This document shows positions 922 to 63,430 of a stretch of 64,000 bases of DNA, piece by piece. The notes beneath the pieces were generated by a model. It was not told the origin of the DNA. It saw only the letters and a program-made list of their open reading frames with translations, and did not search any database. The first letter of the stretch is position 1. The number at the start of each line of letters is the position of its first letter. Origin of the DNA: a virus. Taxonomy: Duplodnaviria > Caudoviricetes. Both the position numbers and the translations under genes were made by a program. The DNA lies in the IMG/VR virus record IMGVR_UViG_3300014204_000123, positions 32,001 to 96,000 of that record; one strand, written 5' to 3'.

Positions 922-935
922 GGCAATTGATTGCA
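922..935. repeat. dispersed 14-bp palindromic motif, copy 1 (GGCAATTGATTGCA)
   Basis: Consensus KGCAATYRATTGCM; other copies start at 7626, 18901, 19789, 23934, 31372, 34928, 42212, 48828, 54869. Confidence 0.85.
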
Positions 936-947
936 CTTGAAAACTAC

Positions 948-976
948 TTGCGCGCGTGAATCCCTCGGGATAGTAT
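948..976 (+). promoter_or_regulatory. putative sigma70-type promoter
   Basis: TTGCGC-17 bp-TAGTAT in an intergenic region. Confidence 0.5.
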
Positions 977-994
977 AGGTGTAACGGCGTGTGG

Positions 995-1063
995 GGCCGG
1001 GCATTTCGGCCAGACAGGGCTGTAGTTTCAACAGGTTAGAAAGCCACAATGCAGGTTCGCCTG
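995..1063 (+). ncRNA. structured leader / tRNA-like remnant
   Basis: Hairpins GGCCG/CGGCC, TTTC-AACAGGTTA-GAAA (D-arm-like) and CAGG-TTCG-CCTG; no anticodon arm or acceptor stem. Confidence 0.35.
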
Positions 1064-1079
1064 ATAACGGAGGGACATT

Positions 1080-1445
1080 ATGGGATCTTACGTTCAGAAA
1101 TTGCTTGATTTGGTCGAGGGTTCACCTACCTCGGACAAGGGAAACAAGCCTGGGAACCCCTGGCACGACAAAGATGGCCACTTCGGCCTCAATAAGTCTG
1201 GGGCTTCGGTTTGGGCCTCTGTTGATGCTCCTGGCGAGCACTTCCTTGCGTATCCGAGCAAGAACCGCACCAAAGAGAAGCCCTGGAGCGCTACCAAGGC
1301 AAAGGGAATTCCGCAGGCTTGCGGCCGATGGGATCGCAGCGTCGTGTGCAAGCACGCAGTGAAGTTCAAGAAGGGCCTTCGTGGCAATGCTTCCAGCGCA
1401 AAGCTTCAGGCCGCAAAGAAGCGGGACTCGGAAGCTTCCGCATAG
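1080..1445 (+). CDS. basic protein, putative head-internal protein
   Basis: N-terminal LLDLVE/G; NPWHDKDGHF motif; Lys-rich; GGAGG RBS. Confidence 0.6.
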   Translation: MGSYVQKLLDLVEGSPTSDKGNKPGNPWHDKDGHFGLNKSGASVWASVDAPGEHFLAYPSKNRTKEKPWSATKAKGIPQACGRWDRSVVCKHAVKFKKGLRGNASSAKLQAAKKRDSEASA

Positions 1446-1487
1446 TCCGGTTCCACACCTATCCAGTAGATTTTCAGGAGGGTTCAT

Positions 1488-6871: not shown

Positions 6872-6900
6872 TTGACAATAATCTTGTGACCCCTTATGCT
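6872..6900 (+). promoter_or_regulatory. class A sigma70 promoter
   Basis: AAATTTCCCGC-TTGACA-17 bp-TATGCT. Confidence 0.8.
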
Positions 6901-6919
6901 TCAAGGCGTGGAGGGGACA

Positions 6920-8818
6920 ATGCCCAGAAACGCTGCATGGATTGAGGGAAGTGAGATTGTGGTTGACTCGCCGTATTCTGCGGATGCGGTTGTTGCGGCC
7001 CGTGCTATCCCCGGACGTTTCTGGGATGGAGCTAACAGGCGGACTCGCTTCCCAGGTTGGCGGCTTACTGAGGTTACGGCCTGGATCTCCAGATACTTCC
7101 CTGGCTTGGATGTTTCTGGGCTGAATGCCCCGATAGGGGATGCGATCAAGGTCGAGGGCCGCGGGGCGTTCTTTGCGGTGACAACGCCTTACGATGTTGA
7201 TTTTGTTTCGGCGGTGAAAAAGCTTCCCGATTGTTCCTGGCCGCAAGATCAAGAGATTTGGCTGGTTCCCAAGGACCGGGCACGGGATCTCTTGGGCATA
7301 TGCAAGCGGATATTCGGGAGTGAGCCTTCGGCGTTGCTTGCTGCCATAGCCGAGCACGAGGGGAATAGAGCGCTGGCGACTGCGGTATCCAGTGAGGACA
7401 AGATAATCCTTCCTGGCGGGGAGCTATTCCCGTTCCAAGTAACAGGAGTAAAGTTCTTAGAGTCAAAAGGTATGGGTCTTATATCGGACGACATGGGGCT
7501 GGGAAAATCTATACAAACAATAGCCTATATGTATAGAAACAAAGAAATATCACTTCCGGCTATTGTTGTTTGCCCTGCGTCGGTGAAGGTCAATTGGGTT
7601 CGGGAGATCACGAGGTGGAGTGGTCGGCAATTGATTGCAGTTGTTGCGGACGTGAAGAAATTGGAGTCTCAGATTGCCTCAGAGAAGCCGGATGTTTTGG
7701 TCTTGAATTATGAGACGCTTCCGAAGTTGGTAGACGCTACGGGTGCGGTTTCTCCTGTTCTTGTGCGGTGGGGCTTGAAGTGTATTGTTTTCGACGAAGC
7801 GCACACGTTGAAGAATGCGAAGAGCCAAAGGTCGAAGGCGGCCTTGGCACTAGTCAGGCATACGGGCGGTCGTGTGATAGAACTGACAGGGACTCCGCTA
7901 CTGAATCGGCCCGGTGAACTGTGGCACTTGCTGCATTTGCTTGACGGGGAAGCATGGGGCAACTACGGGCGGTTCCGATTCAGATACTGCGGTCCCGAGC
8001 AAAACCGTTACGGATGGACGTTCGACGGGGCTTCAAATACTCAGGAGCTTAGGGATCGATTGATCGGGCATTACATGGTTCGGCGCCTGAAAAAAGACGT
8101 GTTGAAGGAACTTCCACCGAAGCTGAGAAGCTATGTCCCGGTCCGACTGGACAAGGCGGGGATGAAGGAATGCCGGGATCTGTTTGGAACTTTTGCTGCT
8201 AGGCTTATGGCGGAAGATGGGAGCCCGTTGAAGCGTCATGCCGACACGTTGGCGGCGATGAACGAGCTTCGGCAAGCGGTGGGAATGCGAAAGGTTCCGG
8301 TCGTGGCCTCGTGGCTTGTAGAGGCGCTGGAAACGACGGGGAAGGTTCTCGTGTTCGCTTATCATCATGCGGTGACGGATGCGTTGATAGCGACGCTTGC
8401 TGAGTCTGGCGTTAGGGTCTCTAGGGTTGACGGTAGGGACGATCTGGCGACTAGGCAATCTGCAATTGACGGATTCCAGGCGGGCGACATCCAGGTTTTG
8501 GTCTGCGGGATCAAGACTGCGGGGGTGGGCCTTACATTGACTGCTACTGACCAAGTGGTTTTCATCGAGCGCGCTTGGCGTCCGGCGGATCATGAGCAGG
8601 CGGAAGACCGGGCATACAGGATCGGGCAAGACAAGTGCGTCAACGTCTGGTTCTTCGATGCCGAAGATACAATTGACGACGATATGAGGGATCTCCAGGA
8701 TTCCAAGCGAGGGGTTATCTCTGCGATAGTCGACGGCGGCGATGCTCCGAATGAGACGGAAGAGAGTGTGGCGATGCAAGTGGCTTTGCGGGTCATGAAA
8801 CGATATCAGGAGCGATAA
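6920..8818 (+). CDS. SNF2-family (SMARCAL1/HARP-like) helicase
   Basis: DDMGLGKS, VVCPAS, DEAH, LTGTP, GVGLTL, QAEDRAYRIGQ motifs; GGAGG RBS before ATG 6920. Confidence 0.92.
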   Translation: MPRNAAWIEGSEIVVDSPYSADAVVAARAIPGRFWDGANRRTRFPGWRLTEVTAWISRYFPGLDVSGLNAPIGDAIKVEGRGAFFAVTTPYDVDFVSAVKKLPDCSWPQDQEIWLVPKDRARDLLGICKRIFGSEPSALLAAIAEHEGNRALATAVSSEDKIILPGGELFPFQVTGVKFLESKGMGLISDDMGLGKSIQTIAYMYRNKEISLPAIVVCPASVKVNWVREITRWSGRQLIAVVADVKKLESQIASEKPDVLVLNYETLPKLVDATGAVSPVLVRWGLKCIVFDEAHTLKNAKSQRSKAALALVRHTGGRVIELTGTPLLNRPGELWHLLHLLDGEAWGNYGRFRFRYCGPEQNRYGWTFDGASNTQELRDRLIGHYMVRRLKKDVLKELPPKLRSYVPVRLDKAGMKECRDLFGTFAARLMAEDGSPLKRHADTLAAMNELRQAVGMRKVPVVASWLVEALETTGKVLVFAYHHAVTDALIATLAESGVRVSRVDGRDDLATRQSAIDGFQAGDIQVLVCGIKTAGVGLTLTATDQVVFIERAWRPADHEQAEDRAYRIGQDKCVNVWFFDAEDTIDDDMRDLQDSKRGVISAIVDGGDAPNETEESVAMQVALRVMKRYQER

Positions 8819-14835: not shown

Positions 14836-14907
14836 CTAAGGGTTAGTCAACAGGTGCAATTATTGCACCTTGAATGCCTGCCACAGGCGGGCGAATGGAG
14901 GTTTTTC

Positions 14908-18776: not shown

Positions 18777-19445
18777 ATGGGTCGGAAGAAAGTTCCTCAA
18801 ATCAAGCCGTGTTTCCTGGATAGGCGTGCATGTAGTTCATGCGGCGGTGCCTGCTGCAAGCAGTATCCCGGCATTTCGTTGCCGGAGGATTTTCCAGACG
18901 TGCAATCGATTGCAGACGCTCTGTCTAGCGGGCGGTGGTGTATCGACTATGAGGGCGACGATCCGTTTCTTCGATGTGCTACTAAGGGCAGCGAGGGGAC
19001 GGCGGTGGAAGAGCTTTACGACGGCCATGAATGCACGTTCCACGGTGCCCGTGGTTGCGAACTAAAGCCCGACGATAGGCCAGCCGGATGCCGCTATATG
19101 GTTCCGATGATCGGGTCTTGCGCAGTGGTCGTCAAACCCGTCCATTCAGCGAATGCGTGGAGGTCGCGGGCAGGCGATCTATTTTCAGCGAAAAGCCTTG
19201 TTCGGTCTTCCGTTTTGGCTCTGCCTCGCGTGGATGCAGGCGCGGACGCTCGCGTGAGATCACTTTCACGAAGTGAAAGTAAGGAAGATAGAGATAAGGA
19301 TAGAGAAAAGAGGGGTGTGGGGGGGAAGGGGAAAGGGAAAGGGAAAGGAACCCAAAAAAGCGCGAAAACGCAGTCAAAAGCCACAGGAGCGGCGATAGAA
19401 AAGAGGGAAGCGAACGTGGTCTTTTTGAAACCCCGTCAGGAGTAA
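18777..19445 (+). CDS. CxxCxxxCC (YkgJ-like zinc/iron-chelating) protein with low-complexity tail
   Basis: CSSCGGACC...CTF...GC...RPAGCR. Confidence 0.7.
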   Translation: MGRKKVPQIKPCFLDRRACSSCGGACCKQYPGISLPEDFPDVQSIADALSSGRWCIDYEGDDPFLRCATKGSEGTAVEELYDGHECTFHGARGCELKPDDRPAGCRYMVPMIGSCAVVVKPVHSANAWRSRAGDLFSAKSLVRSSVLALPRVDAGADARVRSLSRSESKEDRDKDREKRGVGGKGKGKGKGTQKSAKTQSKATGAAIEKREANVVFLKPRQE

Positions 19446-19816
19446 AAACAGAGCAGGGAGAGAAGGGAGTTTTGTTCGGCAGTTGAATCGCGCGACTTTT
19501 TGCGCCGGGTCGGAAACCGGGTTAGAAGGGAATCAGGAGGTGCTGATATGTTATGCGTTGAATGTGGCAAAAAGGACGCTACGGGTGAAGACGGAGTCTG
19601 CATTGATTGCTTCGATCTCCGGTATGCGGTATCGAATTCCCCGTGGTGTGCTCTGGCTCTGATTGCCAGAAACCCGTGGTGGTTGATCGGGCGCTCTAAG
19701 CCTGGGCCGATTGCCAAACTCGTGGGATTCTTGGGATCGGCGGTGCTATTGTTCGTTTCGATGGCGATTTTCGCTGTCATTTGAGTCCTGCAATCGATTG
19801 CAGGGGGAGGGGAAAG

Positions 19817-20383
19817 ATGGTCGAACATGCGTATATCTCGGGTCTCCAGAAGCGAATCCATGCGTATGCTCTGGAGCACGGGTGGTGGGAGATGGGGGTT
19901 GATAACCGAGAGATTGAGGAGCTGGTGGTCCTGATTGTCGGGGAGGTGTCTGAGTTGCACGAGGCCTACCGGCGGGGGAAGCTGGATGCTGGTTGCGACA
20001 AGATCGGGCCGGACGGAAAGCCGATCCTCACCTGCTTTGAGGATGAGTGTGCTGATATCGTGATCCGGCTTTTAGATATGATGGCCGCCCATGGGGAAGT
20101 TGTTCGCCCGGAAACGCATAGGCTCCCTGAGTATCTATCGTTCTCTAGGCAGTGCTTTGCTTTGGTTGATCGCATAATGGACATTGCTAAGTTTTGGGAT
20201 TATGCCGATAACAAAAAAGCCACATTGCACTCTAATTCTACAAGAGGGTCGTTCTGCTCTGTTGTTTTGTCTTTTGTCAACTTAATGTGCGTGGTTAGGG
20301 GCGTGGATCTCTGGAGGTCGGTGGAGATCAAACACGAGTACAATATGAGCAGGCCGTACCGGCATGGAGGTTTGAAGGCATGA
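19817..20383 (+). CDS. MazG-like nucleotide pyrophosphohydrolase
   Basis: GEVSELHEAYR...EDECADIVIRLLD...KHEYNMSRPYRHG. Confidence 0.8.
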   Translation: MVEHAYISGLQKRIHAYALEHGWWEMGVDNREIEELVVLIVGEVSELHEAYRRGKLDAGCDKIGPDGKPILTCFEDECADIVIRLLDMMAAHGEVVRPETHRLPEYLSFSRQCFALVDRIMDIAKFWDYADNKKATLHSNSTRGSFCSVVLSFVNLMCVVRGVDLWRSVEIKHEYNMSRPYRHGGLKA

Positions 20384-23054: not shown

Positions 23055-23964
23055 TCGGTGGTGGCTGAGAAGCGTTGGTCCTGATAGTGACGGGGAGCCA
23101 GAAGGGAAGTTGGTCTATGCGTGCCTTCTGTGTGATATGGAGTGGTCATTCGAGCGAATCAACGACCAGGAAGAGACGGTGGAATTGATTCCTTGTGGGA
23201 ATTTAGAGATCACACATGCCGACAAGCATGGACGGCCCTCAATGAGGGTGACTTCATGGTTCCGAGATGGGGCGCCATTTAATTGTACGGTATGTGATAG
23301 ATGCGCGAACGTGCATAGAGCGATAAGAGCCGGGAGCATTTTCCGTCCACAGTATTTGTGGAGCGAACGCCCTACGGGTCCAGACAGTGAGGTGGAATTC
23401 GGATAGTGGCAATAGGATACTGGTATAGGGAGATAATATGAGCACTGAACCCAACGAGTACAAAGTATGCAGAGTAGAAGGCCACGAAATAGAAATAGGC
23501 CAGATAACAGTAGGCTATGGCCCATACGTGATTCTTCCAGAGGACAAGGTGGGCTTCCATGCTCAGGTAGAGCTGGCTCTTGGTCCTGGCCTCAAAGTCA
23601 TTGTCGAGGACTGCGATTCAGACGAGTGCGCGACCAGAGCTATGGCTGTTGCTCGTTTGCTTAGGAACCTCATGCAAGAGAGGGCGCCCTTATGCCTGTA
23701 GCGATTGGTGACCAGAAGCTCTACCTATGTGAGGACCGGCGTTCGCAGCGAGAATGGATGCGTGAGGCCTTGCTTGCAGGGAAGGTTTTGAGCGATACTC
23801 GTCTTTGGCTTGCTGGGGTTGACGAGGCGAGTCGGGAGATTCGGCTATTGAGGCGCAGCGGGATGAAGATCGCCACGACCAAGATAGAGATTATAGACGC
23901 TGAGGGAGAGGCGAGTATGGACTTGGCTTGGCGTGCAATCGATTGCACCAATGGAGGGGAGTGA
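23041..23964 (+). other. three hypothetical ORFs (23041, 23438, 23692)
   Basis: Packed ORFs; the first has CxxC pairs. Confidence 0.5.
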
Positions 23965-41090: not shown

Positions 41091-42220
41091 TGCCTTTCGA
41101 TCTCGACTCCAGGATGGTTGCCATGGGCTTGGTCTTCATTGGACTACTGGCCGTGGGCCTTATTGGTGCTACGGTGATCGATGCCTTGTCCGTTATGGCC
41201 GACAGGTCGAAGAGGGGCAATAAATGGTACAAGTGATTCAGGATGTCCCATTATGGTTTAAGATTTTCTTTGTCATGATGGCGGCTAGTTGTGTCGGGAT
41301 TCTGTTTCTTTTGTTGCAGATTCAATTGGCCATATCAAGGCTGGCCGAAGGCATGATACTAATGAACAAAGAAAACAAAAATATGGCGAAGAGATTGGAC
41401 GCTCTATGTGACGCATATATGATTGAGGAAGACGGTACGGTGCCATGCGTGATTCGTGCCGGTGAATCAAATTTGGACGATGAACAAGAGGGACGACGAT
41501 GGAAGAGAAGGTAGTGAAGCCTAGAACGAGAACAGGCGGCGGGTCGATTGCTTGGGGCTATTTCCTGATTCAGGAGGATGGCAGCGAGGCATTCCACATG
41601 GTGGAGGGGGCGACCAGCACCGAGGACGTGAAGGATATGATACGGAAAGAGATGCTGCAATTAGGCGCTAACTCTGTATTCTATAAAAACGTGGTGAAGA
41701 TTTTTGCTATCAAGGCGGAAATCAAGCCTAACTTATCGTCTAAAGTGGTGGTGAAGCTATGAGTTCGAGCTGGGTTCCGAAGGTTGGGGAGATGGTCTAC
41801 GGCGTTTCCAGGGTAGAGTCTACTCGGCCACCTATGTATATGATCCATCATGGGGTGGTCCGGGAGTCCGACGCCAATGCTAGGATGGTGCACCTTGAAG
41901 ATGGCCTTCCCGGCGGCAAGCTGATTATCTTGCTGATGAACAAGACATTCAGGACCAGGACTGCCGCGCTTGCGGATATCGTTGCGATGTCGGAGCAGGC
42001 CTTGTCTCGCTACTGTGAGACCTCCATTGAGAAGCCTGGGAGCATTCCCGAGCATGTTATTGAAGCATGGAGGACCCAGGTCGAGATGGCCAAGGACGGG
42101 GCGGTGCCCATGATTGGTGGTCTTATTGACCCAGGAACTGGGAAGCCTGTTTCGTTCCGCCAGCGTAAAATTCGGACCAGGAAGATGAAGCGGTCCAACT
42201 TTCTGACTGTCTGCAATTGA
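41090..42220 (+). other. four hypothetical ORFs (41090 TM, 41224 TM, 41499, 41759)
   Basis: Packed ORFs. Confidence 0.5.
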
Positions 42221-42236
42221 TTGCCGGGGGGTCAGG

Positions 42237-43748
42237 ATGTCGGTAGCTCCTGTAAGGTTCAAGGATACGGAAGTGGTCATCGACCGTATGGCTTGGATTC
42301 CAAAGGCCTCATTGAGCGACCAGGACATGTTCCTTTTGCGAAGGGAGCTAGTCAAGACACCTATCAAGATGGCTGAGTTCGCCGGGATGGACGAGGACGA
42401 GAAGCCGGTGGTGCTATATGAGGAGCACGGCCGGTGGTTTGGAGTTCCCAGGGCGTATTATGAATCAGTCATGAGGTCCAAGTGTTCCGGCTTGACCGAG
42501 AAGCCGATGTTTTGCGAGACCCGATCGATTCCAGACAGCAGGATGGAGTTGAAGGGCATCAAGTTGGGCGGGACCTATTCAGAGCAAGCGGAGATGGTTC
42601 GGCAACTGTCCGAGTTTTTCAAGGGCGGGGGCATGGGAGGCATCTTCCGGGCCGACCCTGGATACGGCAAGACAGTGGTAGCGCTTCGGGTGATCTCAGA
42701 GTTGAAGGTTCCTACGCTGGTTGTGGTCCACAAGGACTTCCTGCTCACGCAATGGATCAACCGAATCAGGAAGTACCTTCCCAACGCCAAGATCGGTCAC
42801 ATACAGCAAGACAAGGTGGTAGTGGAGGGCTGCGATATTGTGATAGCGATGCTCCAGTCGTTGTCTCAAAGGGAATATGATAGGTCTATTTACAGTGCGT
42901 TCGGGTTGGTGGTCATTGACGAGACGCACCGGCTGGGGGCCAGCTCGTGGGCTCCGGTCATTCGCAAGTTTAGGGGCCGCTGGCGACTTGGACTTACTGC
43001 TACGGCGAGGCGCAAGGATGGCATGGAGGACGTGTTCTTCTGGAACATAGGTCCGATCATTGTCTCTGCCAAGGTCAAGACCAAGCTTCCCAAGTTGAAG
43101 CGAATCAGGACGGCGAGCAAGTTGCCTCGTGCGGGCACGCTGGAGGGCAATGCTAGGGTATCGAAGACTGACAAGGAGCAGGCGAAGTCAGTCATGACAC
43201 CTACGGTGTTGCGGCATATAGCGAGGGATACACAGAGGAACAAGGTCATTGTGGAGCAGATTTTCGAGGCTGCCACGAGTGAAAATCTGAGGAAGGTCAT
43301 AGTGCTGAGTGAACGAAAGGACTCGCATTTGCACCTTTTGAAAGACGACTTCGAGAAGTTCTGTGTGAAGAAAAAGGCGTCTGTGACCACTGGCTTCTAC
43401 TACGGGGGGCTCTCCGAGCGGGAGCTGTTGGAGTCCGAGGGGAAACGGGTTCTGTTCTGTACTTACCAGATGGTGAGTGAGGCGCTGGACATAGAGTCCT
43501 TGGATACGTTGGTGCTGGCGACGCCAATTTCGGATGTAGAGCAGGCTGTTGGCAGAATTCGACGGCAGTGCACTCCTGATAGCGACAAGTGCGCCCGGTT
43601 ATGTCCGTGGCGGGCCGGGGTGTGCAAGGGCAAGCCCGATCCGATCGTTGTGGACATCCTGGACCCGCTGATTGATCGGTGCGAGGCGAAGGCCAGATGG
43701 CGCATGATGTTCTACCGGGAAGAGGGGATTATGGGCAAGCAGGCTTGA
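42237..43748 (+). CDS. SF2 DExH helicase (UvsW/XPB-like)
   Basis: PGYGKT, IDETH, GLTAT, EALDI, QAVGRIRR. Confidence 0.9.
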   Translation: MSVAPVRFKDTEVVIDRMAWIPKASLSDQDMFLLRRELVKTPIKMAEFAGMDEDEKPVVLYEEHGRWFGVPRAYYESVMRSKCSGLTEKPMFCETRSIPDSRMELKGIKLGGTYSEQAEMVRQLSEFFKGGGMGGIFRADPGYGKTVVALRVISELKVPTLVVVHKDFLLTQWINRIRKYLPNAKIGHIQQDKVVVEGCDIVIAMLQSLSQREYDRSIYSAFGLVVIDETHRLGASSWAPVIRKFRGRWRLGLTATARRKDGMEDVFFWNIGPIIVSAKVKTKLPKLKRIRTASKLPRAGTLEGNARVSKTDKEQAKSVMTPTVLRHIARDTQRNKVIVEQIFEAATSENLRKVIVLSERKDSHLHLLKDDFEKFCVKKKASVTTGFYYGGLSERELLESEGKRVLFCTYQMVSEALDIESLDTLVLATPISDVEQAVGRIRRQCTPDSDKCARLCPWRAGVCKGKPDPIVVDILDPLIDRCEAKARWRMMFYREEGIMGKQA

Positions 43749-43794: not shown

Positions 43795-44094
43795 ATGAGA
43801 TCGATTAGGACTAGGAAGCCTTTGGAACTGGAGTTCCGAGGCAAGGCGTACACTGTGTTTTGGGTTGGAGACTTGGCCACTGAGGTTGGCCGGTCATCTA
43901 GGACGGTTGGCTGTTGGTGCAGGAGCGGGGTGCTTCCCGAGTCTCCATTCCGGTCACCACGGGGGGACAGGTACTTCACGTCGGAGATGATTGGGGTCAT
44001 CAAGGCCGCTGTTGCCAAGTGTGGCGGGGCCAATTTGGATCTCCAGTCCTTTACCAAGGAGGTGAAGGAAGGCTGGGCGAAACTAGGTTACTGA
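43795..44094 (+). CDS. MerR-type HTH DNA-binding protein
   Basis: VGDLATEVGRSSRTV..W.RSGVLP...RSPRGDRYF. Confidence 0.75.
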   Translation: MRSIRTRKPLELEFRGKAYTVFWVGDLATEVGRSSRTVGCWCRSGVLPESPFRSPRGDRYFTSEMIGVIKAAVAKCGGANLDLQSFTKEVKEGWAKLGY

Positions 44095-44716: not shown

Positions 44717-46129
44717 ATGGCAAAGAAAGAAAAGAAGTCGGATTCGGCAGAGGAGCAGTCTGGAGCCAGTAAGGTCCAGAGGTTTAGGCTTCGCCAGGAT
44801 TCGCTATGCTCCAAGTATGGGTCGGGGACTTCCGTTATGGCGTCCGTGATCCCTGATACGCTGCGCATTTCTACGGGCTCATTCCGGTTAGATTATGCGT
44901 CGGGCGGTGGTGTCCCTGTTGGCCGAACTTCGCTGATTTGGGGCGGGGAGTCGTCTGGCAAAACTGGGATGGTTTTGCGTATTGGTGCACAAGCTCAGAA
45001 GTTGTGCGCCAACTGCTATCGGATGCCGGTATTGGCCTCGTTGCTCAAGATGGACGATGATACGATCGTCTTGGGGGTCCCGGATGGCAATGGTGGGTTT
45101 ATCGACTCCGAGACCGGGCGTGAGGTTGTGGTTGCGAGTGTGGCTGGGGAACTCAGCAAGATCCAGTATTGCGACTGCTATTCCAAAGCGCTGTTTGTTC
45201 CCAAGCCTCTACCGGGTAACGGCGATAATGAGTTCGAGAAAGATGCCATTTTTCAGGCTAGGCTAGAAGGTTATAGCACAAACTCATATGAGGACGTTAC
45301 GGTACACTATGTAAACATAGAGGGCGACCTTGACGTTGGCTGGGCCAGGAAGATAGGTATTGACACGAGCAGAATGGCGGTGACGGTTTGCGAGACCGGG
45401 GAAGAGGCTGTCGATGTTGTCAAGTTTCTGATTGATTCTTGCGATAACGACGTGATCATCGTGGATTCTCTGGCGATGATGGTGCCCATGACTGAGGTCG
45501 AGGAGAGTGCCCACGACGCTCATATGGGGTTACAGTCCAGGATGCTGAATCAGGCTATGCGGGTGTGGACTCAGGCCAGAGTAGCGGCAAAGAGGAAGCA
45601 CGGCAGGGACATCACGATTCTGCTCGTGAACCAATGGCGAATGAAGATTGACAGGTTCGGTGGAGGCCCGCAGTTAGTTGGGGGGCTTGGCCAGCGGTTT
45701 GTGGGGTCGTTCCAGGTGAAGTGTTGGTCAAAGAAGGGTGAGTCGTCTCAGATCGACGTTGGCAAAAAGGGATATGAGGTGGACGTTGCGGAAACGGCTA
45801 CAACATGTTTCAAGGTGGAAAAGAACAAGACGTTTGGGTCCAAGGAAGTCGAGGGTGAGATTGAGTTCTTTGTCCGTGATTGCGAAGAGGGTAAGGCCGG
45901 TGAGGTTCGGGAGTTCGATTACATATGGACTTTGGCGAAATACTTCGGGATCGTTTTCAAGCAGGAAAAGCCCATAAAGTGGATAATGAATGGGAAGGTG
46001 TTTGATACCGAAACGGCGGCCAAGGCAGCGGTCAGAACGGACCCGGAGGTTATGGCTGGGCTTCGTTCGACGTTAATGACGTTGCTCCTGGGTCAGATCA
46101 AGAAAGAGATGCTGGGGGGCAAGCGATGA
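44717..46129 (+). CDS. RecA/UvsX-like recombinase with a ~100-aa Cys-containing insertion
   Basis: ISTGSFRLD..SGGGVPVGR, GGESSGKT, IEG.LD..WA..IGID, IIVDSLA, LVNQWR, VEKNK. Confidence 0.9.
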   Translation: MAKKEKKSDSAEEQSGASKVQRFRLRQDSLCSKYGSGTSVMASVIPDTLRISTGSFRLDYASGGGVPVGRTSLIWGGESSGKTGMVLRIGAQAQKLCANCYRMPVLASLLKMDDDTIVLGVPDGNGGFIDSETGREVVVASVAGELSKIQYCDCYSKALFVPKPLPGNGDNEFEKDAIFQARLEGYSTNSYEDVTVHYVNIEGDLDVGWARKIGIDTSRMAVTVCETGEEAVDVVKFLIDSCDNDVIIVDSLAMMVPMTEVEESAHDAHMGLQSRMLNQAMRVWTQARVAAKRKHGRDITILLVNQWRMKIDRFGGGPQLVGGLGQRFVGSFQVKCWSKKGESSQIDVGKKGYEVDVAETATTCFKVEKNKTFGSKEVEGEIEFFVRDCEEGKAGEVREFDYIWTLAKYFGIVFKQEKPIKWIMNGKVFDTETAAKAAVRTDPEVMAGLRSTLMTLLLGQIKKEMLGGKR

Positions 46130-46650: not shown

Positions 46651-47141
46651 GCATCAACAGGCAAGAGGTCTTGCGCAAGGCGTTGTTCTCGCTTGTGTCC
46701 CATGCGAGGGATACGGTCCCGGCTGGGGCGACGTTGCCGGATGACAAGATGGGCATTCCCATTCTTGATTCTGGGATTCTGCTGACTCTGGATCACCTAA
46801 AGCGTGACGGCTTTGACCGACCACTCAGGCCGCTTCTCGAAGCCGCGCTTGATGCGGCGGTTGTTGACGGGTATACGGCTTTCCCGAGGCCGGAAGGGTT
46901 TGTGCCAGACCCCATGTTTGAATTGGTGGTCAAGCGCCTGACTCAGTTGTTTGGGGCCGCTGAATGGTTCCAGATGTATCAGGACGAGGCTCAATGTTCC
47001 GGGGAACTGGCGATGCCGTTGTGGCTCATTCGGGCGGGATGCAAAACGAAAGAGGACGGCATTGAAGCGTGCAGAAAGATCTTGTCGAATGCTGGGTTGC
47101 TGAAGAAACGGGCGAAGTTGAAGATTGAAGGCAAGAAATAA
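46644..47141 (+). CDS. hypothetical protein
   Basis: Packed ORF. Confidence 0.5.
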   Translation: MVSINRQEVLRKALFSLVSHARDTVPAGATLPDDKMGIPILDSGILLTLDHLKRDGFDRPLRPLLEAALDAAVVDGYTAFPRPEGFVPDPMFELVVKRLTQLFGAAEWFQMYQDEAQCSGELAMPLWLIRAGCKTKEDGIEACRKILSNAGLLKKRAKLKIEGKK

Positions 47142-48076
47142 TGGTAGAAGATCTTGGCGGTGTTGTATCTCAGATGCTGGCAGACCGAGGCGTTGGTGCT
47201 CCGAAGAACGCCATTGACTTCTACCAGATCATAAAGTCTGGCAAGCGTCGGACCAGGACGCTTATGCCATGCAGGCCAGACACGATGTTCTCTACTCATG
47301 ATTTTGGCCGTCTTTGCGCCTGGGAGGAGATCCTGTGCGCTCGATACAAGCTGGTTCGGATGAGGGAGGAGTCTCCGCAAGACAGGTACATGTTCAGTAT
47401 CGGCAAGGCGTACCATTGGATGTTCCAGAACCTTCTGTTTCCCCATGGCGGGGACACGATTATGACGAGGGACTGCCAAGCGAACAGGGTCGAGGCGGTT
47501 GGGGATGCCGATGATCTGTTTCTGGGGTGGTGGAAGTGTGAGAGTTGCGCTGAGACTCATGCAGGGAAGGGGACCGGCTACCATAGCTGGATTCCGAGGC
47601 CCAAGCAGTGTCGCAAGTGTGGAGGCCATGAGTTCGAGTTCCGTGAGGCCGCTGCGGCGAGGGATGGATTCATATCCCACCAAGATGGCGGCATTAGGTA
47701 CAACGGCAAGGTCTACCACGTAGAGTTCAAGACCATCAACGGGTTCTTTTTCAAGCAGTTGGGGATCGTTCCCAGGGACCCGGACCACATTGTCCAGGTC
47801 AGGTTGAACCAGCACACATGCGGGATAGATCGGTCGTTGCTGGTATATATCAACAAAGAGGAGCCGACCGGCTCAAAGTCCATGAAAACCTATGAGGTTA
47901 GATATGCAGCGAAAGACGTTGCCCCTTCCCTTAGAAAAGCCGAGTCGATCATCAACGGGATCAAAAACGAAGACTCCCCGCTCCCGGCAGGATGTGCTTC
48001 CTGCGCAGATCCCGGTGACAAGCGCGCTCAGGCGTGTATCGCCCGGAAGTGGTGTCCGGTATGTGTTGGGCCTTGA
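47141..48076 (+). CDS. Cas4/RecB-like PD-(D/E)XK exonuclease
   Basis: N-terminal C, G..YH, HQDG, VEFKT, QVRL.Q, C-terminal C...C...C (possible Fe-S); extra CxxC/CxxC. Confidence 0.75.
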   Translation: MVEDLGGVVSQMLADRGVGAPKNAIDFYQIIKSGKRRTRTLMPCRPDTMFSTHDFGRLCAWEEILCARYKLVRMREESPQDRYMFSIGKAYHWMFQNLLFPHGGDTIMTRDCQANRVEAVGDADDLFLGWWKCESCAETHAGKGTGYHSWIPRPKQCRKCGGHEFEFREAAAARDGFISHQDGGIRYNGKVYHVEFKTINGFFFKQLGIVPRDPDHIVQVRLNQHTCGIDRSLLVYINKEEPTGSKSMKTYEVRYAAKDVAPSLRKAESIINGIKNEDSPLPAGCASCADPGDKRAQACIARKWCPVCVGP

Positions 48077-48626
48077 CCTATCGAATCGGGCCGCGGGCAT
48101 TACGGTGGTTGACCAGACGGGCCGAAAATGCTATGAAGATGTCAGTGGGTTCGCTCTTGCGAAAGCTGATTCTGAGGAGTCTCGGGTGTTGCGGATTTGC
48201 ACTGTTCGTGATGCGTGCCTTCGGCCATTCAACCTATACAAGATAGATTCGGTTTGGTGTGAGGATTATGCCTTTAGTCGGGCAGGTTCGAGCAGTGTGA
48301 CAGGCCTTGCCGAACTGAGGGGCGCCATAAAGGCGATGCTTTGGGAGAAGCACAAGGTCACCATGAAGTTCGCCGGCGTTCGGACTGTCAGGTCCAGGTT
48401 GCTGGGCAAAGGTTGGGGCGGGAGCAAAACGAAGCGCCAGATTCTGGATTTTCTCAGTTTGCATGGTCGCGAGTTTCAAGACGACAACAGTATGGACGCT
48501 TGGTTGACCGGGACCTATGGAATGTTGGTCGACGTGGGGGTTATCGATGAGACGGGGAATCAACGTAGTGGTTCAGGCAGGAAACGTGGGCGAGGCGTCA
48601 AAAGGGAGGCTCAGCAAGAAGGGTGA
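48063..48626 (+). CDS. RuvC-like Holliday junction resolvase
   Basis: LGLDLS..AAG, CEDY, LAELRG, K, DDNSMDA; start uncertain (GTG 48063). Confidence 0.75.
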   Translation: MLGLDLSNRAAGITVVDQTGRKCYEDVSGFALAKADSEESRVLRICTVRDACLRPFNLYKIDSVWCEDYAFSRAGSSSVTGLAELRGAIKAMLWEKHKVTMKFAGVRTVRSRLLGKGWGGSKTKRQILDFLSLHGREFQDDNSMDAWLTGTYGMLVDVGVIDETGNQRSGSGRKRGRGVKREAQQEG

Positions 48627-48825: not shown

Positions 48826-48854
48826 CGTGCAATCGATTGCACAGAGGAGGTGCT

Positions 48855-49904
48855 ATGAGTAGGAAGGTATTGGAGCAGGGTTTGACGAAGTTCGACGAGG
48901 CGTTGTTCCAGTCGTTGCTTAAGCTCTTTGACGAGGACGGGGTCGGGGCTGTCGACGGGAGCAAGGTCACGTCTGTATCAGATCCTGTCACCGGAGAAGA
49001 GATTTCCGACCCAGAGGCCATAGGTGAGATGTTTGGCCGTCTGGTGGCTTCGGGTCGACTGGTGGAAGAGACGGGCGACGATGGAACCAAGCTGTATCGG
49101 CGGGCTGGTGGTGAAGTCGCTGGGGCTTCGGATGCCATGACCGGGTCCGAAATGGAAATAGCGAATCGGGCCTTGTCGAAGGTCATGGATCTCAAATCTG
49201 CGATTGAAGTGAAGTTCTTCTACCTTGGCGGGGCCTTGAAAGAGGTCTTTGTTCACGAGCACTGGAAGGCCAAGGGATACAAGGGCTTTGACGAGTATGT
49301 CGAGAAGGAAGTGGACTTGAAGCGTCGAATGGCGCGGTATCTCATTCGCGTTTACGAGGTGTTCACCGAGATCGACAAGAATCTTCCCGATGGTCGAGTT
49401 CTCACGAAGCTCCAGATGATGGGGACCACCAAGGCAATCGAGCTTGTGGGCGTTGTCAATGGTTCCAACTTCGACGAGTGGGCGACCAGGGCGCAGGGCT
49501 TGACCGTTCGTGAATTGAAGCGGATGGTTGCTTCGTCCGAGGGTGGTGGTACGGCCCTTCCCAAGTCAGTTGACGGCAAGTTGTCGGATAGCGGGGAACC
49601 TATGGAGAAAATGACAAGGCTCACATTCGTCTTGGCTCCAGAACAGCTCAAGAACATCAACATGGCTCTGGAGGTATTGCGGGAAGAGACCAAGTCGGAC
49701 AAGACGGGACACCTGCTGGACACGATGGCCTCGATCCTGCTGTCGCACTATGGCGACAAGGCTCCCACCGATGTTATGCTGGCGAACGTGGAGCGTTCAA
49801 CCGGGCTTCGTCTGATTGCGTTCTCCGCTGAGGGTGACTGCATTCATGGTGAAGAGCTGCTGGCAAACGTAACGTCTGCGGTTGACGAGGACTCGGCAGA
49901 TTGA
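48855..49904 (+). CDS. hypothetical DNA-binding protein (DUF3102-like HTH segment)
   Basis: LGGALKEV...GYKGFDEYVEKEVDL..R.ARYLIRVY; palindrome immediately before its RBS. Confidence 0.5.
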   Translation: MSRKVLEQGLTKFDEALFQSLLKLFDEDGVGAVDGSKVTSVSDPVTGEEISDPEAIGEMFGRLVASGRLVEETGDDGTKLYRRAGGEVAGASDAMTGSEMEIANRALSKVMDLKSAIEVKFFYLGGALKEVFVHEHWKAKGYKGFDEYVEKEVDLKRRMARYLIRVYEVFTEIDKNLPDGRVLTKLQMMGTTKAIELVGVVNGSNFDEWATRAQGLTVRELKRMVASSEGGGTALPKSVDGKLSDSGEPMEKMTRLTFVLAPEQLKNINMALEVLREETKSDKTGHLLDTMASILLSHYGDKAPTDVMLANVERSTGLRLIAFSAEGDCIHGEELLANVTSAVDEDSAD

Positions 49905-54397: not shown

Positions 54398-55276
54398 ATG
54401 GGGGGTTTCATGAGACGGCTTCCTGGACCTATCGAGAAGTTGTGCGGCGGTAGTCTTGAATCGATCAAAAATCGATTCTCTACGGCATATCCTACAGAAG
54501 AAGTTATCGCCACGTTTAGCACCTACGTAGTGTCCAAGAAGGGTTTGGACTACGTCAGGCGAGACCTATCCGAGGCTATGGATTTTATAGGTGAGCAAAC
54601 CATCTGGAGTGCGTCCAATGGGGATGCCTTGCTGGAGGCCCGTAGGGTAGCGGAGAAGGTTGCGTCCGATGCGATGACAGGGGCAGTGGACCCAGAGGAC
54701 ATGGACCTATTGGTAGGCCATATCCTGTCAGGCAACTCGTTCACAGTTGCAAGCGTGAAAGAGTCCATTATGACAGTTCTGGTTGGCACGAGTGTATGGA
54801 GATCCTTCTACCGAGAGTTCGAGCCAAGGATTCGGAAGCTGTTGCGCGGGGAACTTGGCAAGTTGACCGGCAATCAATTGCAGCCCAAGTTCCGAGATAT
54901 TCGGCTTGGAGAATTGGACAAGGGGGCGTCTGCCGATGCCATGAACTCTATCCGGCTGTCGTTGCGTGAGGTGGCGTCTCGGTTGGATGCTCTTCACCAA
55001 CGGGCGTTGGCGATTCAGATCCCAAATGCTCCGGTTGGCAGGATGGACCTGGAGCATGACTACGTGCAATTCCGGGCATTGAAGGCTTCTCTGGAAGCGG
55101 AGATAGTCAGGATTTACGAGTATATTGTAGGTATAGACGTTACGACCGGGAACCTTGAAGACGCTGCTGTGACCTATGACCTCCTGACGGAGGAGCTGTA
55201 TAGGTACGAGGTTATGCTGGCGTTCTTTGTTAGGGCTATCAATGTGGCGTCGATGGACGACGTTGCAGGTATTTAG
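54398..55276 (+). CDS. hypothetical head-module protein
   Basis: Between portal and protease. Confidence 0.6.
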   Translation: MGGFMRRLPGPIEKLCGGSLESIKNRFSTAYPTEEVIATFSTYVVSKKGLDYVRRDLSEAMDFIGEQTIWSASNGDALLEARRVAEKVASDAMTGAVDPEDMDLLVGHILSGNSFTVASVKESIMTVLVGTSVWRSFYREFEPRIRKLLRGELGKLTGNQLQPKFRDIRLGELDKGASADAMNSIRLSLREVASRLDALHQRALAIQIPNAPVGRMDLEHDYVQFRALKASLEAEIVRIYEYIVGIDVTTGNLEDAAVTYDLLTEELYRYEVMLAFFVRAINVASMDDVAGI

Positions 55277-59530: not shown

Positions 59531-59577
59531 CCCCCTGCAATTTGATTGCACGCCACGCGATCGGGTTGCAGGGGGGG
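59531..59577 (+). terminator. hairpin after the capsid gene
   Basis: CCCCCTGCAA...TTGCAGGGGG; contains a 15-bp variant of the dispersed palindrome. Confidence 0.5.
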
Positions 59578-60087: not shown

Positions 60088-60117
60088 TTTGTCCTTCGTT
60101 TCTGGAGGTTTGCACCT

Positions 60118-60855
60118 ATGTCCGCGTATCGTCCGGCTACGTCAGCCGAAGCTATAGATCAAGTCAAGGCCATGCTCGGGTATCCCATTGTCGGTGTAGA
60201 AATGGGGCCGGAGAACTTTGATGCAGCATATGGGGCAACGGAGCGATGGTACAGCGCCCGGAAGGGCCAGACCAAGATGTATTCGCTCACACTGGTCGAT
60301 GGGCAGCAGGCGTACACGATGCCTACCGATTGCGACGAGGTTGTAGACGCGTTCTTCCCGCCTGGGAAGTGGGACACCTATCAGGCTTCCGTGTTGGACT
60401 ACGGGGTGGAGCTTAGCGGTAATCCCGTGGATATCATGCGAGACAGGTCGGGGATGGGGCCGTACAGCAGGATCGTCCAGATCCTGGAGAACAATGAGAT
60501 TGCCAGGGACATATTTGCGAACACCTATGAGTGGTTTTACGACACGACGGAGCGGGTGTTGACTATAGGCGGGAACCCCGCCGGTGGGTCTCTGGCGCTG
60601 ATTAAGTACAAAAGCATGACGGTGGATATAACGAAGTTTACGTCACTAGAGATCGATATTTTCATGCGATTCCTACTGGCGCAAATAAAGGTAATATACG
60701 GCAGAATACTGAGGAAGCATTCAGAGATTCCCGGAGCTTCCGGTCCGAAGACAACGGACGGAGCGGAGCTTGTATCCGAGGGAACTGCCGAGATGGAACG
60801 ACTAGACGAGAGGATTGGGATGATCAACGGGCCTTCAGGGTTCTTTGCTGGATAG
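60118..60855 (+). CDS. neck/head-tail adaptor (T4 gp13-like)
   Basis: KAMLGYPIVGVEM...GRILRK...IPG..G...DGAELVSEG..EMERL; synteny. Confidence 0.75.
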   Translation: MSAYRPATSAEAIDQVKAMLGYPIVGVEMGPENFDAAYGATERWYSARKGQTKMYSLTLVDGQQAYTMPTDCDEVVDAFFPPGKWDTYQASVLDYGVELSGNPVDIMRDRSGMGPYSRIVQILENNEIARDIFANTYEWFYDTTERVLTIGGNPAGGSLALIKYKSMTVDITKFTSLEIDIFMRFLLAQIKVIYGRILRKHSEIPGASGPKTTDGAELVSEGTAEMERLDERIGMINGPSGFFAG

Positions 60856-60860
60856 GTGTA

Positions 60861-61172
60861 ATGATGCCTGGAAAAGGAACGAATGAGCTGCTTAGGCTAT
60901 GTGTGAGGGCGGTGTCCGACAAGGAAGGGAAGGACCGTAAGGGTGTGTCCAAAGCCTTCGCTGTCTGTACTGCCAGCCTTCAAGACAAAGGCTACATGAC
61001 GGGTGGGAAGTTGACCCCAAAGGGTCGGTCTAGGCTTCGAGCGAAGCGCAAGGAGCCGGACTTCAAAAGGAAGCAGGATGGATATGAGGCCACTCTTGCT
61101 GCGGCTCGTGGCGAGGACCTTGATCCGTTCCTGTGGATGGCGGCTATTGCGGAAGGGCTGGATGACCTATGA
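60861..61172 (+). CDS. small basic virion-associated hypothetical protein
   Basis: CVRAV...AFAVCTASLQ. Confidence 0.5.
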   Translation: MMPGKGTNELLRLCVRAVSDKEGKDRKGVSKAFAVCTASLQDKGYMTGGKLTPKGRSRLRAKRKEPDFKRKQDGYEATLAAARGEDLDPFLWMAAIAEGLDDL

Positions 61173-61669
61173 GTGAGAACCTTCCGAGAAGCAGGCTGAT
61201 TTTCGACCAGGACATTGCCCTGTTCGACAAGCTTGCGGTAGAGGAGGTGACTCTGTATGGGGTGTCCGTCGACTACTACCGTTTGGACAAGCGCAACTAT
61301 GATCCGATAGACCAGGAAGTGTTCGATGAAGGGTTTGTCGGGCCGTTCAAGATGTTCGCCAATGTGGAGTGGAACCGGGCCGAAGATCAGCAGGATGCCA
61401 CGGAGAACGGGTATAAAGAGACGGCGGAAGCAGAGATCAGGATTCCGAGGCAGCTATTCCACCAAGCGGCCGGGACGCTACCTCCTGTTGTTGGCGACGC
61501 TGTGAAGATGTTCGTTGGGGAGTCTGTTGGTGACGTGTGGTTCGATATTGTCCATGCGAAACAGGGGGAGCCGGTGTATAGTTCGGCTTCGTTCGTGTGG
61601 TATCTGTGTCGAGGGCGACGCAGGAGCGAGTCATTACCGAATGAGCGGGCAAGAGGGGGGATAGAATGA
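61169..61669 (+). CDS. head closure protein (T4 gp14-like)
   Basis: E.VTLYG..VDYY...DPI..E...P.VGD; synteny. Confidence 0.6.
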   Translation: MSENLPRSRLIFDQDIALFDKLAVEEVTLYGVSVDYYRLDKRNYDPIDQEVFDEGFVGPFKMFANVEWNRAEDQQDATENGYKETAEAEIRIPRQLFHQAAGTLPPVVGDAVKMFVGESVGDVWFDIVHAKQGEPVYSSASFVWYLCRGRRRSESLPNERARGGIE

Positions 61670-62651
61670 GCATGGCGAGTGTGGACACCATCATGAGGCA
61701 GCGTGAGATAATGGAGGGGTCTTTGACCCAGGTACTCTCGCTGTGCGATATGAGCCGTGGAGATCTGGTAGTGGTAAGAGACCTGAATTTCCCGGATCGG
61801 ATGGCGTGGGGGAGAGTTGTGGAGGTCAATCCCAGAGTCGGCTACGTTATGGTATCTGGACCTGGAGGGGTCTTGTCTGTCCACGACGTGAAGACGTACT
61901 CGTTCCATGGGGTCGTTGGTGCGAAGGAACGCGAGGTTCTGACAAATGGTTAAGTCGAAGCTGGTTGATGCGCTGACCCACGCGTATGTAGAGCAGGGCG
62001 ACGGGTCTTGGGTCCATCCCGACTTTGTGGGCAGAAAGGTGGGTCCGAAGTCAGTAGAAGAGGCAATTGCGGAGATTGAGAAGCGGGCCTTTTCTATGAT
62101 GTCAATGGGATTCTGCTTGGTGTGTTCGTTCTGCCATAACCTGTGGGAAGCCCACGACGCTGGGCTGTCTTCATGTTCAATCATAGGTTGCTCAGGACCC
62201 AAGAAGATGGGAGATTTTCCCATGTACCGAGGCGAGTTGCCAAGGCACTTATGGGGGAAGTGGTGCATGGTGTGTGGCGCTGAGGCTACTGTCGGATTCC
62301 GGCCAAAGGGCAATGGCGTTGTTTTTGGGCTATGTTCGAGCCATAAAAGTATGTTTATAGACAAGGAGATCGGAAATGAGTGATTTTCAAAGAGTCTTAG
62401 AGGAGGCCCGTAGTGTGCTCGGCAAGTCGTCAGACATTGCCAACATAACAGAAGGCAAGATGACCAAGGATGCGTTTTTGAAGGCCACGAAGCTGTTGCT
62501 TGGCGTTCCTTCCGAAATGAGCGCAGTCAAGGTCGTTCTGGACTTCCGAACAGAAGACGGCCTATTGGTGGCGAAGGCAGTCTACCGGAAAGACAAGGAG
62601 CCTATTTTCTTGCGGGCAGATGGGAAGGAAGATGAGGAAGGTGGGAAGTAA
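61666..62651 (+). other. three small ORFs (61666, 61946 Cys-rich, 62376 with ITE/G site)
   Basis: Overlapping start/stop codons. Confidence 0.5.
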
Positions 62652-63430
62652 TGTCCAAAGGCCTTCTCTACTGTTCTATGGCCCCCAAGGACCGGAGGGA
62701 GTTGAAGAAACTCATTAGGTGCCTGCGTGACCCCAAGCTTATGAAGGATGTAAGGCGGGGCGTTGCGCTGGAATCTGCATCCGGTTTTATGGACGGCGTT
62801 AGGGGACGGTTGGAGGCTGGAGGCGCTGGAGATCTTGCCCGGTCGATGGAGTTGGTCGAAGTGGATGGCGCTGCCGGTGTTGCTGTTTTACCTAAGCGCA
62901 AGTCGATGCGGCTGTCTGATTTTGAGTCGAACCATGCCGTATACGTTTTCCCCAAGGGTGTGCCGGACGACACGGGTCTACTGGATGCGTTCAGAACAAC
63001 GAATCCATGGCCTGGGAAGTCGTTACCATGGCTGCCGCCTGAGTCTATGGCTGTAGTTGTAGTCCGTGAGGTCACAAGCGACGAGGTCTCCAGACTGGAG
63101 GCGTTGGTCAAGCCTGTCCGGGCTGCAATGATTGCAGGGCTTTCAGCGAGGGGTCAATCAATTCCCCAGAGCGAGGCCCGTACAGTATGGGTTGACGTTG
63201 GATTTGCTGGGCGACGGGCAGAGAAGGGCATAGGTCGAAGTGGGGTTATTGGGGCATGGCGGAAGCAGGTAAGTGCCACTGAAAGGGGCGTATCTCCTGC
63301 GATGCGGCGCAAGATTGAAAAGGTGTTATTTGAGGGAGAGAAATGGAACTTGACAACTAGTGGAGTTCCCCGGAAAATGAGGGAGTCAGAAGTGCCTATG
63401 GTGCTCGACTTCCAAGACGAGATTACGTAA
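62651..63430 (+). CDS. hypothetical morphogenesis-region protein
   Basis: Long ORF in the structural operon. Confidence 0.55.
   Translation: MSKGLLYCSMAPKDRRELKKLIRCLRDPKLMKDVRRGVALESASGFMDGVRGRLEAGGAGDLARSMELVEVDGAAGVAVLPKRKSMRLSDFESNHAVYVFPKGVPDDTGLLDAFRTTNPWPGKSLPWLPPESMAVVVVREVTSDEVSRLEALVKPVRAAMIAGLSARGQSIPQSEARTVWVDVGFAGRRAEKGIGRSGVIGAWRKQVSATERGVSPAMRRKIEKVLFEGEKWNLTTSGVPRKMRESEVPMVLDFQDEIT

Follow-up and report, generated by a model that had tools for sequence, protein, structure and literature searches.

Dyad repeats dispersed over a whole genome are already known in a few phage groups, for example the Cluster O mycobacteriophages, although their function is still open. The genome of the Cluster O phage Corndog contains 34 copies of a 17-base pair (bp) dyad repeat, 5′-TGTTCGGNNNCCGAACA, one third of which are located within genes (PMC4351075). 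Members of the cluster carry more than 30 of these repeats per ~70-kb genome, approximately 40% of them intergenic and the rest either near the 5′ ends of genes or intragenic; the authors predicted a dimeric DNA-binding protein and left the function open (PMC4351075). This is the closest published description of the element that we analyse here, a short palindrome with the core GCAAT-YR-ATTGC (Y is a pyrimidine and R a purine) that recurs throughout a tailed phage genome from IMG/VR (record IMGVR_UViG_3300014204_000123, 133,713 bp, named G000). The analysed window is the 64,000-nucleotide (nt) stretch formed by bases 32001-96000 of that record, and unless another genome is named the coordinates below are those of the window. 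We consider it probable that these palindromes are a genome-wide array of protein-binding DNA sites. With somewhat less assurance, we favour the view that the array serves a dimeric phage protein acting across the genome, most likely the product of the gene at 48855-49904.

The features of the Cluster O repeats are also found here, i.e. tens of copies, invariant inverted arms, a variable centre, a mixture of intergenic and intragenic positions and no orientation with transcription. The sequence, the host phylum and the phage lineage are different, however, and the present array spans proteobacterial classes and comes with a proposed family of binders. Furthermore, the even spacing of the sites and their site-by-site conservation between relatives are quantified here.

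The mechanistically nearest systems are KorB-OB, Noc-NBS and ParB-parS. KorB of the IncP plasmid RK2 is a cytidine triphosphate (CTP)-dependent sliding clamp with a ParB_N domain, which works with KorA (PMC11790492). The KorB-OB system is comparable to what we propose below in that a ParB-family helix-turn-helix (HTH) protein, acting as a global regulator, uses identical palindromic operators that are scattered over a mobile genome. RK2 has 12 OB sites, and the phages analysed here exceed this number two- to three-fold in each genome. The sites of Noc are distributed along the whole chromosome, and some of these are also within genes.

An earlier preliminary description of the window had listed ten copies of the KGCAATYRATTGCM pattern, and all ten were reproduced, each with the same coordinate and sequence. 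The claim that these far exceed the chance level (~0.02 copies) was also borne out: the 12-mer core GCAAT-YR-ATTGC is found ten times, as compared with 0.02 copies in shuffled versions of the window that preserve the dinucleotides, in which the 14-mer pattern has 0.00 copies. No additional copies with one mismatch to the core are found in the window, where 0.56 are expected, therefore the sites are all-or-none. If the length of the centre is allowed to vary (GCAAT-N0-6-ATTGC) there are 13 matches in the window, compared with 0.46 expected. The three spacer-length variants that had been listed do exist. These are GCAATTATTGC at 14856-14866, with a 1-bp centre, which is a possible site only; GCAATTTGATTGC at 59537-59549, with a 3-bp centre, in the intergenic DNA after the major head gene; and GCAATGATTGC at 63125-63135, with a 1-bp centre, within the open reading frame (ORF) 62651-63430. 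Across the complete 133.7-kb genome the core occurs 22 times, approximately once per 6 kb. This genome has a 123-bp terminal repeat, a G+C content of 54% and a strong GC skew, and every gene is on the + strand. The window has no megablast match among cultured phages, and the T4-like portal protein (PF07230) is at most 28% identical to the portals of cultured T4-like phages.

Five of the window copies are located just before a gene, ending 12-19 nt upstream of the start codon. The sequence TGCAATCGATTGCA is found at 19789-19802, in an intergenic gap 15 nt ahead of a pyrophosphatase-like gene (19817-20383), and again at 23934-23947, in the 3′ end of ORF 23692-23964 and 19 nt ahead of a GroES-like gene (23966-24295). 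The copy TGCAATCAATTGCC at 31372-31385 lies in the 3′ end of a gene encoding a TSCPD domain (31000-31407), 12 nt ahead of the start of 31397-31708, and TGCAATTGATTGCC at 42212-42225 is 12 nt ahead of a ResIII/superfamily 2 (SF2) helicase gene (42237-43748). A further perfect TGCAATCGATTGCA, at 48828-48841, precedes the start of the candidate binder gene by 14 nt. Other copies are embedded deep in ORFs: GGCAATTGATTGCA at 7626-7639 within a SNF2-family helicase gene (6896-8818), TGCAATCGATTGCA at 18901-18914 within ORF 18777-19445, TGCAATCGATTGCC at 34928-34941 within ORF 34525-35406, upstream of the genes for a DnaC-like loader and a DnaB-like helicase, and GGCAATCAATTGCA at 54869-54882 within ORF 54398-55276, between the portal and major head genes. 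The other copy of GGCAATTGATTGCA, at 922-935, is intergenic, 5 nt past the previous stop codon and 56 nt ahead of the next start. The five start-proximal copies are thus where the preliminary description had placed them.

In G000 as a whole, 13 of the 22 copies are wholly intergenic, despite the fact that intergenic DNA makes up just 6.6% of the sequence (binomial estimate ~1e-10). Three more are in the final codons of one gene, just ahead of the next start, and 7-9 are deep in ORFs. A typical site begins 2-9 nt past a stop codon, with the Shine-Dalgarno sequence following immediately on its 3′ side and 9-27 nt separating the end of the site from the start codon. The extended consensus is (C/G)T-GCAAT-CG-ATTGC-A(G/C). 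A second class, CGGCAAT-YR-ATTGCAG, is asymmetric, is found in both orientations and holds nearly all of the centres other than CG. Centre and outer flanks go together in the 22 copies (in the window, sites 922, 7626, 31372, 34928, 42212 and 54869): with a CGG/CCG outer flank the centre is other than CG in nine out of ten cases, whereas with (C/G)T...A(G/C) flanks it is always CG.

The palindromes had also been described as mostly clear of promoters, which agrees with our analysis. Six near-identical sigma70-type promoters, cTTGAC(T/A)-N17-GATTATGCTACAAC, are found at window positions 20616, 26294, 32527, 40355 and 43768 and at position 29754 of G000. Each is 15-30 nt ahead of a start codon, and none overlaps a palindrome. 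The closest relative of G000, the phage record G011, hosts 13 copies of a box, GATTATGCTGTAAG, that is related to this promoter.

Relatives were located with the exact 16-mer CTGCAATCGATTGCAG, which occurs in ~30 IMG/VR contigs, many of them with several copies. The same core is present 5-46 times in about 12 distantly related phages of 90-135 kb, including some that have been cultured. Counted over whole records, there are 27 copies in G001, 9 in G002, 5 in G003 (38% G+C), 7 in G004, 3 in G005, 5 in G009, 8 in G011, 28 in G012, 34 in G013 (61% G+C), 20-26 in G014 and 35, in the form CAATCGATTG, in G015. G001 and G002 probably represent a single phage in two parts, given that both were recovered from one sample and that their gene contents complement each other. 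G000 and its relatives have a module in common that encodes the large terminase, an SF2 helicase, a RecA-like protein, a primase, a DnaB-like helicase, a Cas4-like exonuclease, RuvC and the 48855-49904 protein, with amino-acid identities of 20-45%.

A tblastn search with the 48855-49904 protein showed that cultured siphophages infecting Vibrio, Rhizobium, Stenotrophomonas and Rhodobacter encode homologues and keep the gene order (RecA, x, x, RuvC, x, homologue). Stenotrophomonas phage DLP3 hosts 31 copies of TGCAA-N4-TTGCA, 25 of which match GCAATYRATTGC, and phage DLP5 also hosts 31 copies. In Rhodobacter phage RcTiptonus there are 27 copies, mostly exact TGCAATCGATTGCA, or 46 sites if the shorter core CAATCGATTG is included. 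Rhizobium phage RHph_Y1_11 carries 15 copies of a variant with a free centre, gTGCAA-N4-TTGCAc, and Vibrio phage Ares1 carries 25 copies of the variant TGCAATTAA(t)nGCA, in which one half is strong and the other weak. The palindrome is mentioned neither in the DLP3 paper (PMC7326821) nor in the R. capsulatus phage paper (PMC8601537), and a search of the literature by motif sequence matched only primers and synthetic hairpins. Two relatives do not have the core and have other palindromes instead. In G007 (40% G+C) there are 23 copies of aCGAACT-YR-AGTTCGc, mainly just upstream of ribosome-binding sites, and in G006 there are 11 dispersed copies of the analogous palindrome GCACCCGGGTGCAG (GCACC-CG-GGTGC). 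The architecture of the sites is therefore kept while the letters change between lineages, which points to a phage-encoded reader and not to a host factor.

One way of refuting a function for these sites, put forward with the preliminary description, was that the intragenic copies are not conserved in relatives. DLP3 and DLP5 are the only pair close enough for this check (83% nucleotide identity over 94% of the length), and here the copies are conserved. In total, 30 of the 31 DLP3 sites are colinear with a DLP5 site, and 25 of these 30 are identical at all 14 bases, compared with 19% of random 14-mers. Every one of the 300 half-site positions is unchanged, including those of the intragenic sites. 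The five sites that differ do so in the central 4 nt, in each case with the pyrimidine-purine centre kept, and one of these is a flip from TG to CA. According to the DLP3 annotation nine sites are intergenic, 3-4 are in the final codons before the next gene and ~18 are deep in genes. From this sequence comparison, the palindromes are judged to be under very strong purifying selection.

The gaps between sites are also more regular than random, with a coefficient of variation of 0.47-0.67 in most genomes. The evenness is significant in G000 (p = 0.0017), G001 (5e-4), G013 (5e-5), G014 (3e-4), DLP3 (<5e-5), G015 (0.008) and RcTiptonus (0.002), and it is not significant in G011, G012 and G007. Even spacing, together with the intragenic copies, speaks for a function in which the entire DNA molecule has to be covered. 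It also means that the position just upstream of a ribosome-binding site carries less weight. In addition, these genomes are tightly packed, so any intergenic element will have a stop codon on one side and a Shine-Dalgarno sequence on the other, and this position is not specific evidence.

Cluster A mycobacteriophages, whose stoperators are contrasted in PMC4351075, provide a further comparison. Their stoperators number two dozen or more, are short, extend through the phage genome, favour short intergenic gaps and are bound by one phage protein (gp71 of phage L5). However, stoperators are asymmetric, are oriented with transcription and track fast-diverging immunity specificities. The sites described here are symmetric, are not consistently oriented and are conserved across very distant phages. 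The asymmetric variants in G000 face both ways, and 7-9 of the 22 sites in G000 and ~18 of the 31 in DLP3 are far from any start, unlike stoperators or the start-associated elements of Cluster K.

Could the reader be a bacterial protein? The preliminary description had offered two alternatives, genome-wide marking by a dimeric phage protein or titration of a host LacI-type regulator by the phage. In the second case the palindromes would be operators of a LacI/CytR-type regulator, titrated or borrowed by the phage. The sequence TGCAATCGATTGCA does resemble the general operator shape of the LacI family (TG-AA-CG-TT-CA), and CytR half-sites are TGCAA. However, the identical motif is found in phages of Rhodobacter capsulatus (Alphaproteobacteria) and Stenotrophomonas maltophilia (Gammaproteobacteria), with variants in Rhizobium and Vibrio phages, and the palindrome has been exchanged for others in related phages. 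The centre is often TG, CA or TA instead of CG. Moreover, when 185,579 bacterial genomes were scanned for the 16-mer, there were only scattered single matches at about the chance level and no genome with multiple copies. A host regulator is thus highly improbable and titration is not supported, while the conserved, evenly spaced and lineage-specific sites fit the alternative of a phage protein that marks the genome.

The location of many sites in front of ribosome-binding sites raises the possibility that the palindromes act as RNA. In polycistronic transcripts, a hairpin with a GCAA/UUGC stem and a UYRA loop could terminate transcription, direct RNA processing, stabilise the mRNA or act as a translational operator 5′ of the ribosome-binding site. 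In G000, 15 of the 22 copies have a stop codon before them and a Shine-Dalgarno sequence after them, and pairing is possible between the site at 42212 and its Shine-Dalgarno region (z -3.7). Yet the G000 hairpins are just 6-8 bp long, with folds of -9 to -17 kcal/mol that are mostly no better than those of shuffled sequences, and none of the five strict + strand terminators in this genome holds the motif. An Rfam scan of the window matched no family. Many deep-intragenic sites are still perfectly conserved, and even spacing and strict two-fold symmetry suit a DNA site better than an RNA hairpin.

G001 and G002 are the lineage that speaks most for RNA. Here 11 of the 36 sites are extended by at least five further complementary pairs of arbitrary sequence (~0.04 expected), so that these sites centre perfect palindromes of 24-40 bp, with outer arms that differ from site to site. 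Three G001/G002 sites are strict hairpin-plus-U-run terminators on the transcribed strand (-25 to -29 kcal/mol). That the flanks are arbitrary in sequence yet complementary is an argument for a role of hairpin formation in this lineage, and this counts against an array that acts purely at the DNA level. That said, 11 of the 14 terminators in G001 do not contain the motif, and no hairpin-type extension was seen in G000, DLP3 or G012-G015. Terminator or structured-RNA features are found in a subset of the G001/G002 sites only, and not in G000. Little is needed to extend an intergenic DNA palindrome into a terminator, hence we read these hairpins as a secondary use in one lineage and regard an RNA element as a rather improbable explanation of the array. 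G000 does encode an 88-amino-acid KH-domain protein (window 32220-32486, + strand; PF13083, KhpA/KhpB, E 1.6e-16), an RNA-binding fold that is unusual in phages. We rejected it as the reader of an RNA hairpin, since it is present only in G000, G005 and G011.

A related idea is that the palindrome is, or overlaps, a promoter element for a phage-redirected host RNA polymerase. The upstream half, TGCAAT or TACAAT, would be a -10-like hexamer, and transcripts would start just ahead of the Shine-Dalgarno sequence. The distance of 9-27 nt between site and start codon in G000 is in keeping with this, and regular spacing could mirror the transcription units. In G015 the sites are of an asymmetric form, cTACAATCGATTGCAag, whose upstream half reads as a good -10 hexamer and which is oriented with the genes in an 18:3 ratio. 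A pure dimer-on-DNA model does not predict this orientation, which therefore tells against such a model and makes a promoter-like role possible in that lineage. In most genomes, however, the motif is two-fold symmetric, the asymmetric G000 copies face both ways, and the many intragenic copies weigh against promoters. TGCAAT does not have the critical A at position 2 of the sigma70 -10 hexamer. G000 has clear sigma70-type promoters elsewhere and no sigma-factor domain was found in it; one weak match to sigma r4 proved to come from an HTH of the XRE type. Overall, a promoter element is a quite improbable account of the palindromes.

If the palindromes are DNA sites for a phage protein, the product of 48855-49904 (+ strand, 349 amino acids) is the best candidate for their reader, at roughly even odds in our estimation. 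Neither this protein nor 70 members of its family match a Pfam family, with DUF3102 appearing only below threshold. The family is nonetheless large: 7,841 representatives pass a threshold of E ≤ 1e-3, and 968 pass E ≤ 1e-30. An AlphaFold2 model built from the 70-sequence alignment has a mean predicted local distance difference test score (pLDDT) of 86, and consists of a winged helix (residues 6-88), a core (residues 94-232) and a C-terminal domain. Foldseek searches with this model returned ParB/Spo0J entries at a probability near 1. The model was also structurally aligned with VIA-align, where residues 94-232 matched the DNA-binding domain of Helicobacter pylori Spo0J bound to parS (4umk_D) with Z 11.9 and a root-mean-square deviation (rmsd) of 2.2 Å over 115 residues. 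The same region matched Caulobacter ParB-parS (6t1f, Z 11.1), Noc-NBS (6y93, Z 10.2) and Thermus Spo0J (6s6h, Z 9.4), and for the Spo0J-parS, ParB-parS and Noc-NBS alignments the rmsd values are 2.2-3.0 Å over 110-115 residues. The modelled core of the protein thus resembles the ParB/Spo0J/Noc-type DNA-binding fold.

The distribution of the family also fits that of the sites. A family profile finds a member in G000, G002, G004, G005, G009, G011-G015, DLP3 (gp62, 46848-47657) and RcTiptonus (gp82), as well as in the genomes with variant motifs (G006, G007, RHph_Y1_11 and Ares1). The sole motif-bearing genome examined that has no member is G003, a 55%-complete fragment. Furthermore, a site often lies within 100 nt upstream of the family gene: at 14 nt in G000, in G011, DLP3 and DLP5 (~64 nt), at 83 nt in RcTiptonus, at 68 nt in G012 and at 83 nt, beside a TTGACA box, in G013. 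This exceeds the ~7% expected per gene junction, with the proviso that the genomes are not independent. That a site directly precedes the candidate's own gene suggests autoregulation. The candidate gene itself follows directly on a recombination module that encodes a RecA-like protein, a Cas4-like exonuclease and a RuvC-like resolvase (window 44717-46129 and 47141-48626), and this order is also found in DLP3, RHph_Y1_11 and RcTiptonus.

Several results weigh against this choice of reader. Foldseek returned nothing with the model below an E-value of 1e-3, and the alignment Z-scores are in a range where helical domains may match by arrangement alone. The presumed recognition helix is poorly conserved among genomes with identical motifs, with RcTiptonus and G015 differing strongly, and no clean covariation between residues and motif was seen, the variant lineages being few and the helix variable. 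At the sequence level, a search of PDB sequences with the family profile (hmmsearch) gave only spurious TPR matches, and an hhalign comparison of the profile with the ParBc protein of DLP3 (gp104) found no similarity (probability 0.1). The ParB_N domain (PF02195) is present neither in the 48855-49904 protein nor anywhere in G000, although controls and nine related genomes matched it; G011 and G014 also gave no match. Finally, several relatives encode a canonical ParB_N protein and some a MerR-type HTH protein, either of which could bind the sites there.

This last point amounts to a separate explanation, that the sites bind another phage protein. One possibility is the 99-amino-acid MerR-type HTH protein encoded at 43795-44094 (+ strand), after the SF2 helicase gene in G000; another, in the relatives, is the canonical ParB_N-HTH protein encoded beside the terminase genes. 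Proteins of the MerR type bind dyad sites as dimers, and homologues of this one reach the PF13411 threshold in G007 and DLP3 (gp55) with the gene position kept. It was not found, however, in five phages that have the motif or a variant of it (RcTiptonus, G015, RHph_Y1_11, G002 and G004). ParB_N proteins are encoded in G002, G003, G004, G009, G012, G013, G015, DLP3 and RHph_Y1_11, but not in G000 and G014, which are both 100% complete and bear 22 and 20-26 copies of the core. The preliminary description had named both 48855-49904 and 43795-44094 as potential binders. The first has gained from the ParB/Noc-type fold and from its presence in every motif-bearing genome examined but one fragment, whereas the second, missing from several of these, is the weaker candidate. 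We consider it unlikely that another phage protein reads the array.

In the reading that we favour, with the 48855-49904 product as reader, the sites would be recognised as double-stranded DNA by a sequence-specific phage protein that binds as a dimer, one TGCAAT half-site lying on either side of a flexible pyrimidine-purine centre. The array would be spread evenly over the genome, with about one site per 3-6 kb, the scarce non-coding gaps being used where these are available and coding sequence elsewhere. The reader would have a DNA-binding core like those of ParB, Noc and KorB, would lack the CTP-binding clamp domain, and would be autoregulated through the site before its own gene. The array may then organise the genome as a whole or exert control over long distances, much as KorB-OB or Noc-NBS do, and not act as a set of ordinary gene-by-gene operators. 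Both the binding of the sites by this protein and their action at the DNA level are what we infer from the combined evidence.

The comparison with known partition and control proteins can be taken further. The Noc-NBS and ParB-parS systems also use palindromes of 14-16 bp and a dimeric HTH domain of the same predicted fold, and were the top structural matches. KorB likewise appears to have this DNA-binding-domain fold in common with the modelled candidate, and some of the sites in the relatives are just upstream of -35-like elements. In contrast to these systems, no ParB_N domain was detected in the candidate, the array is carried by a phage, and its sites have no relation in sequence to parS or NBS. 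As ParB_N defines the family, the candidate cannot be filed as a member of the ParB, Noc or KorB groups and a CTP-driven sliding clamp should not be assumed. Judging by the model, it may nevertheless recognise its sites as KorB, Noc and ParB do. More tentatively, it is quite possible that an unannotated family without a CTPase clamp, common to phages of Alpha- and Gammaproteobacteria, reads the TGCAAT-YR-ATTGCA array or its lineage equivalents, and thereby organises or controls the phage chromosome during infection in a way unlike the sliding clamps of ParB and KorB.

In the present case such an array is strongly selected, evenly spaced and common to a wide clade of proteobacterial phages, some of which have been cultured on tractable hosts. 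With one conserved, uncharacterised protein as the likely reader, the function of genome-wide palindromes becomes experimentally approachable. This may uncover a ParB-like system for marking DNA that works without a CTP clamp.

Some further observations concern the relatives. G006 carries, in addition to its dispersed GCACCCGGGTGCAG sites and distinct from these, 18 promoters on both strands with a GTGCAC-N3-GTGCAC dyad between a TTGAC -35 box and an ATATT-like -10 (e.g. at 3135, 7174, 52367 and 168190), by appearance an operator-in-spacer regulon. Near a contig end of G001 (444-468) the core is found twice in direct tandem, GCAATCGATTGC-T-GCAATCGATTGC. The Ares1 sites at 65240, 70521 and 72260 are part of a larger repeat (...tttgatcttaatTGCAATTAAnnGTTTACAAAACAAAt...), which may be a promoter or regulatory cassette present in several copies. 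The tRNA cluster of DLP3 opens with two tRNA-Glu genes and is without a suppressor tRNA, while in the corresponding cluster of DLP5 the deposited annotation gives a suppressor tRNA (tRNA-Sup-CTA) at 270-342.

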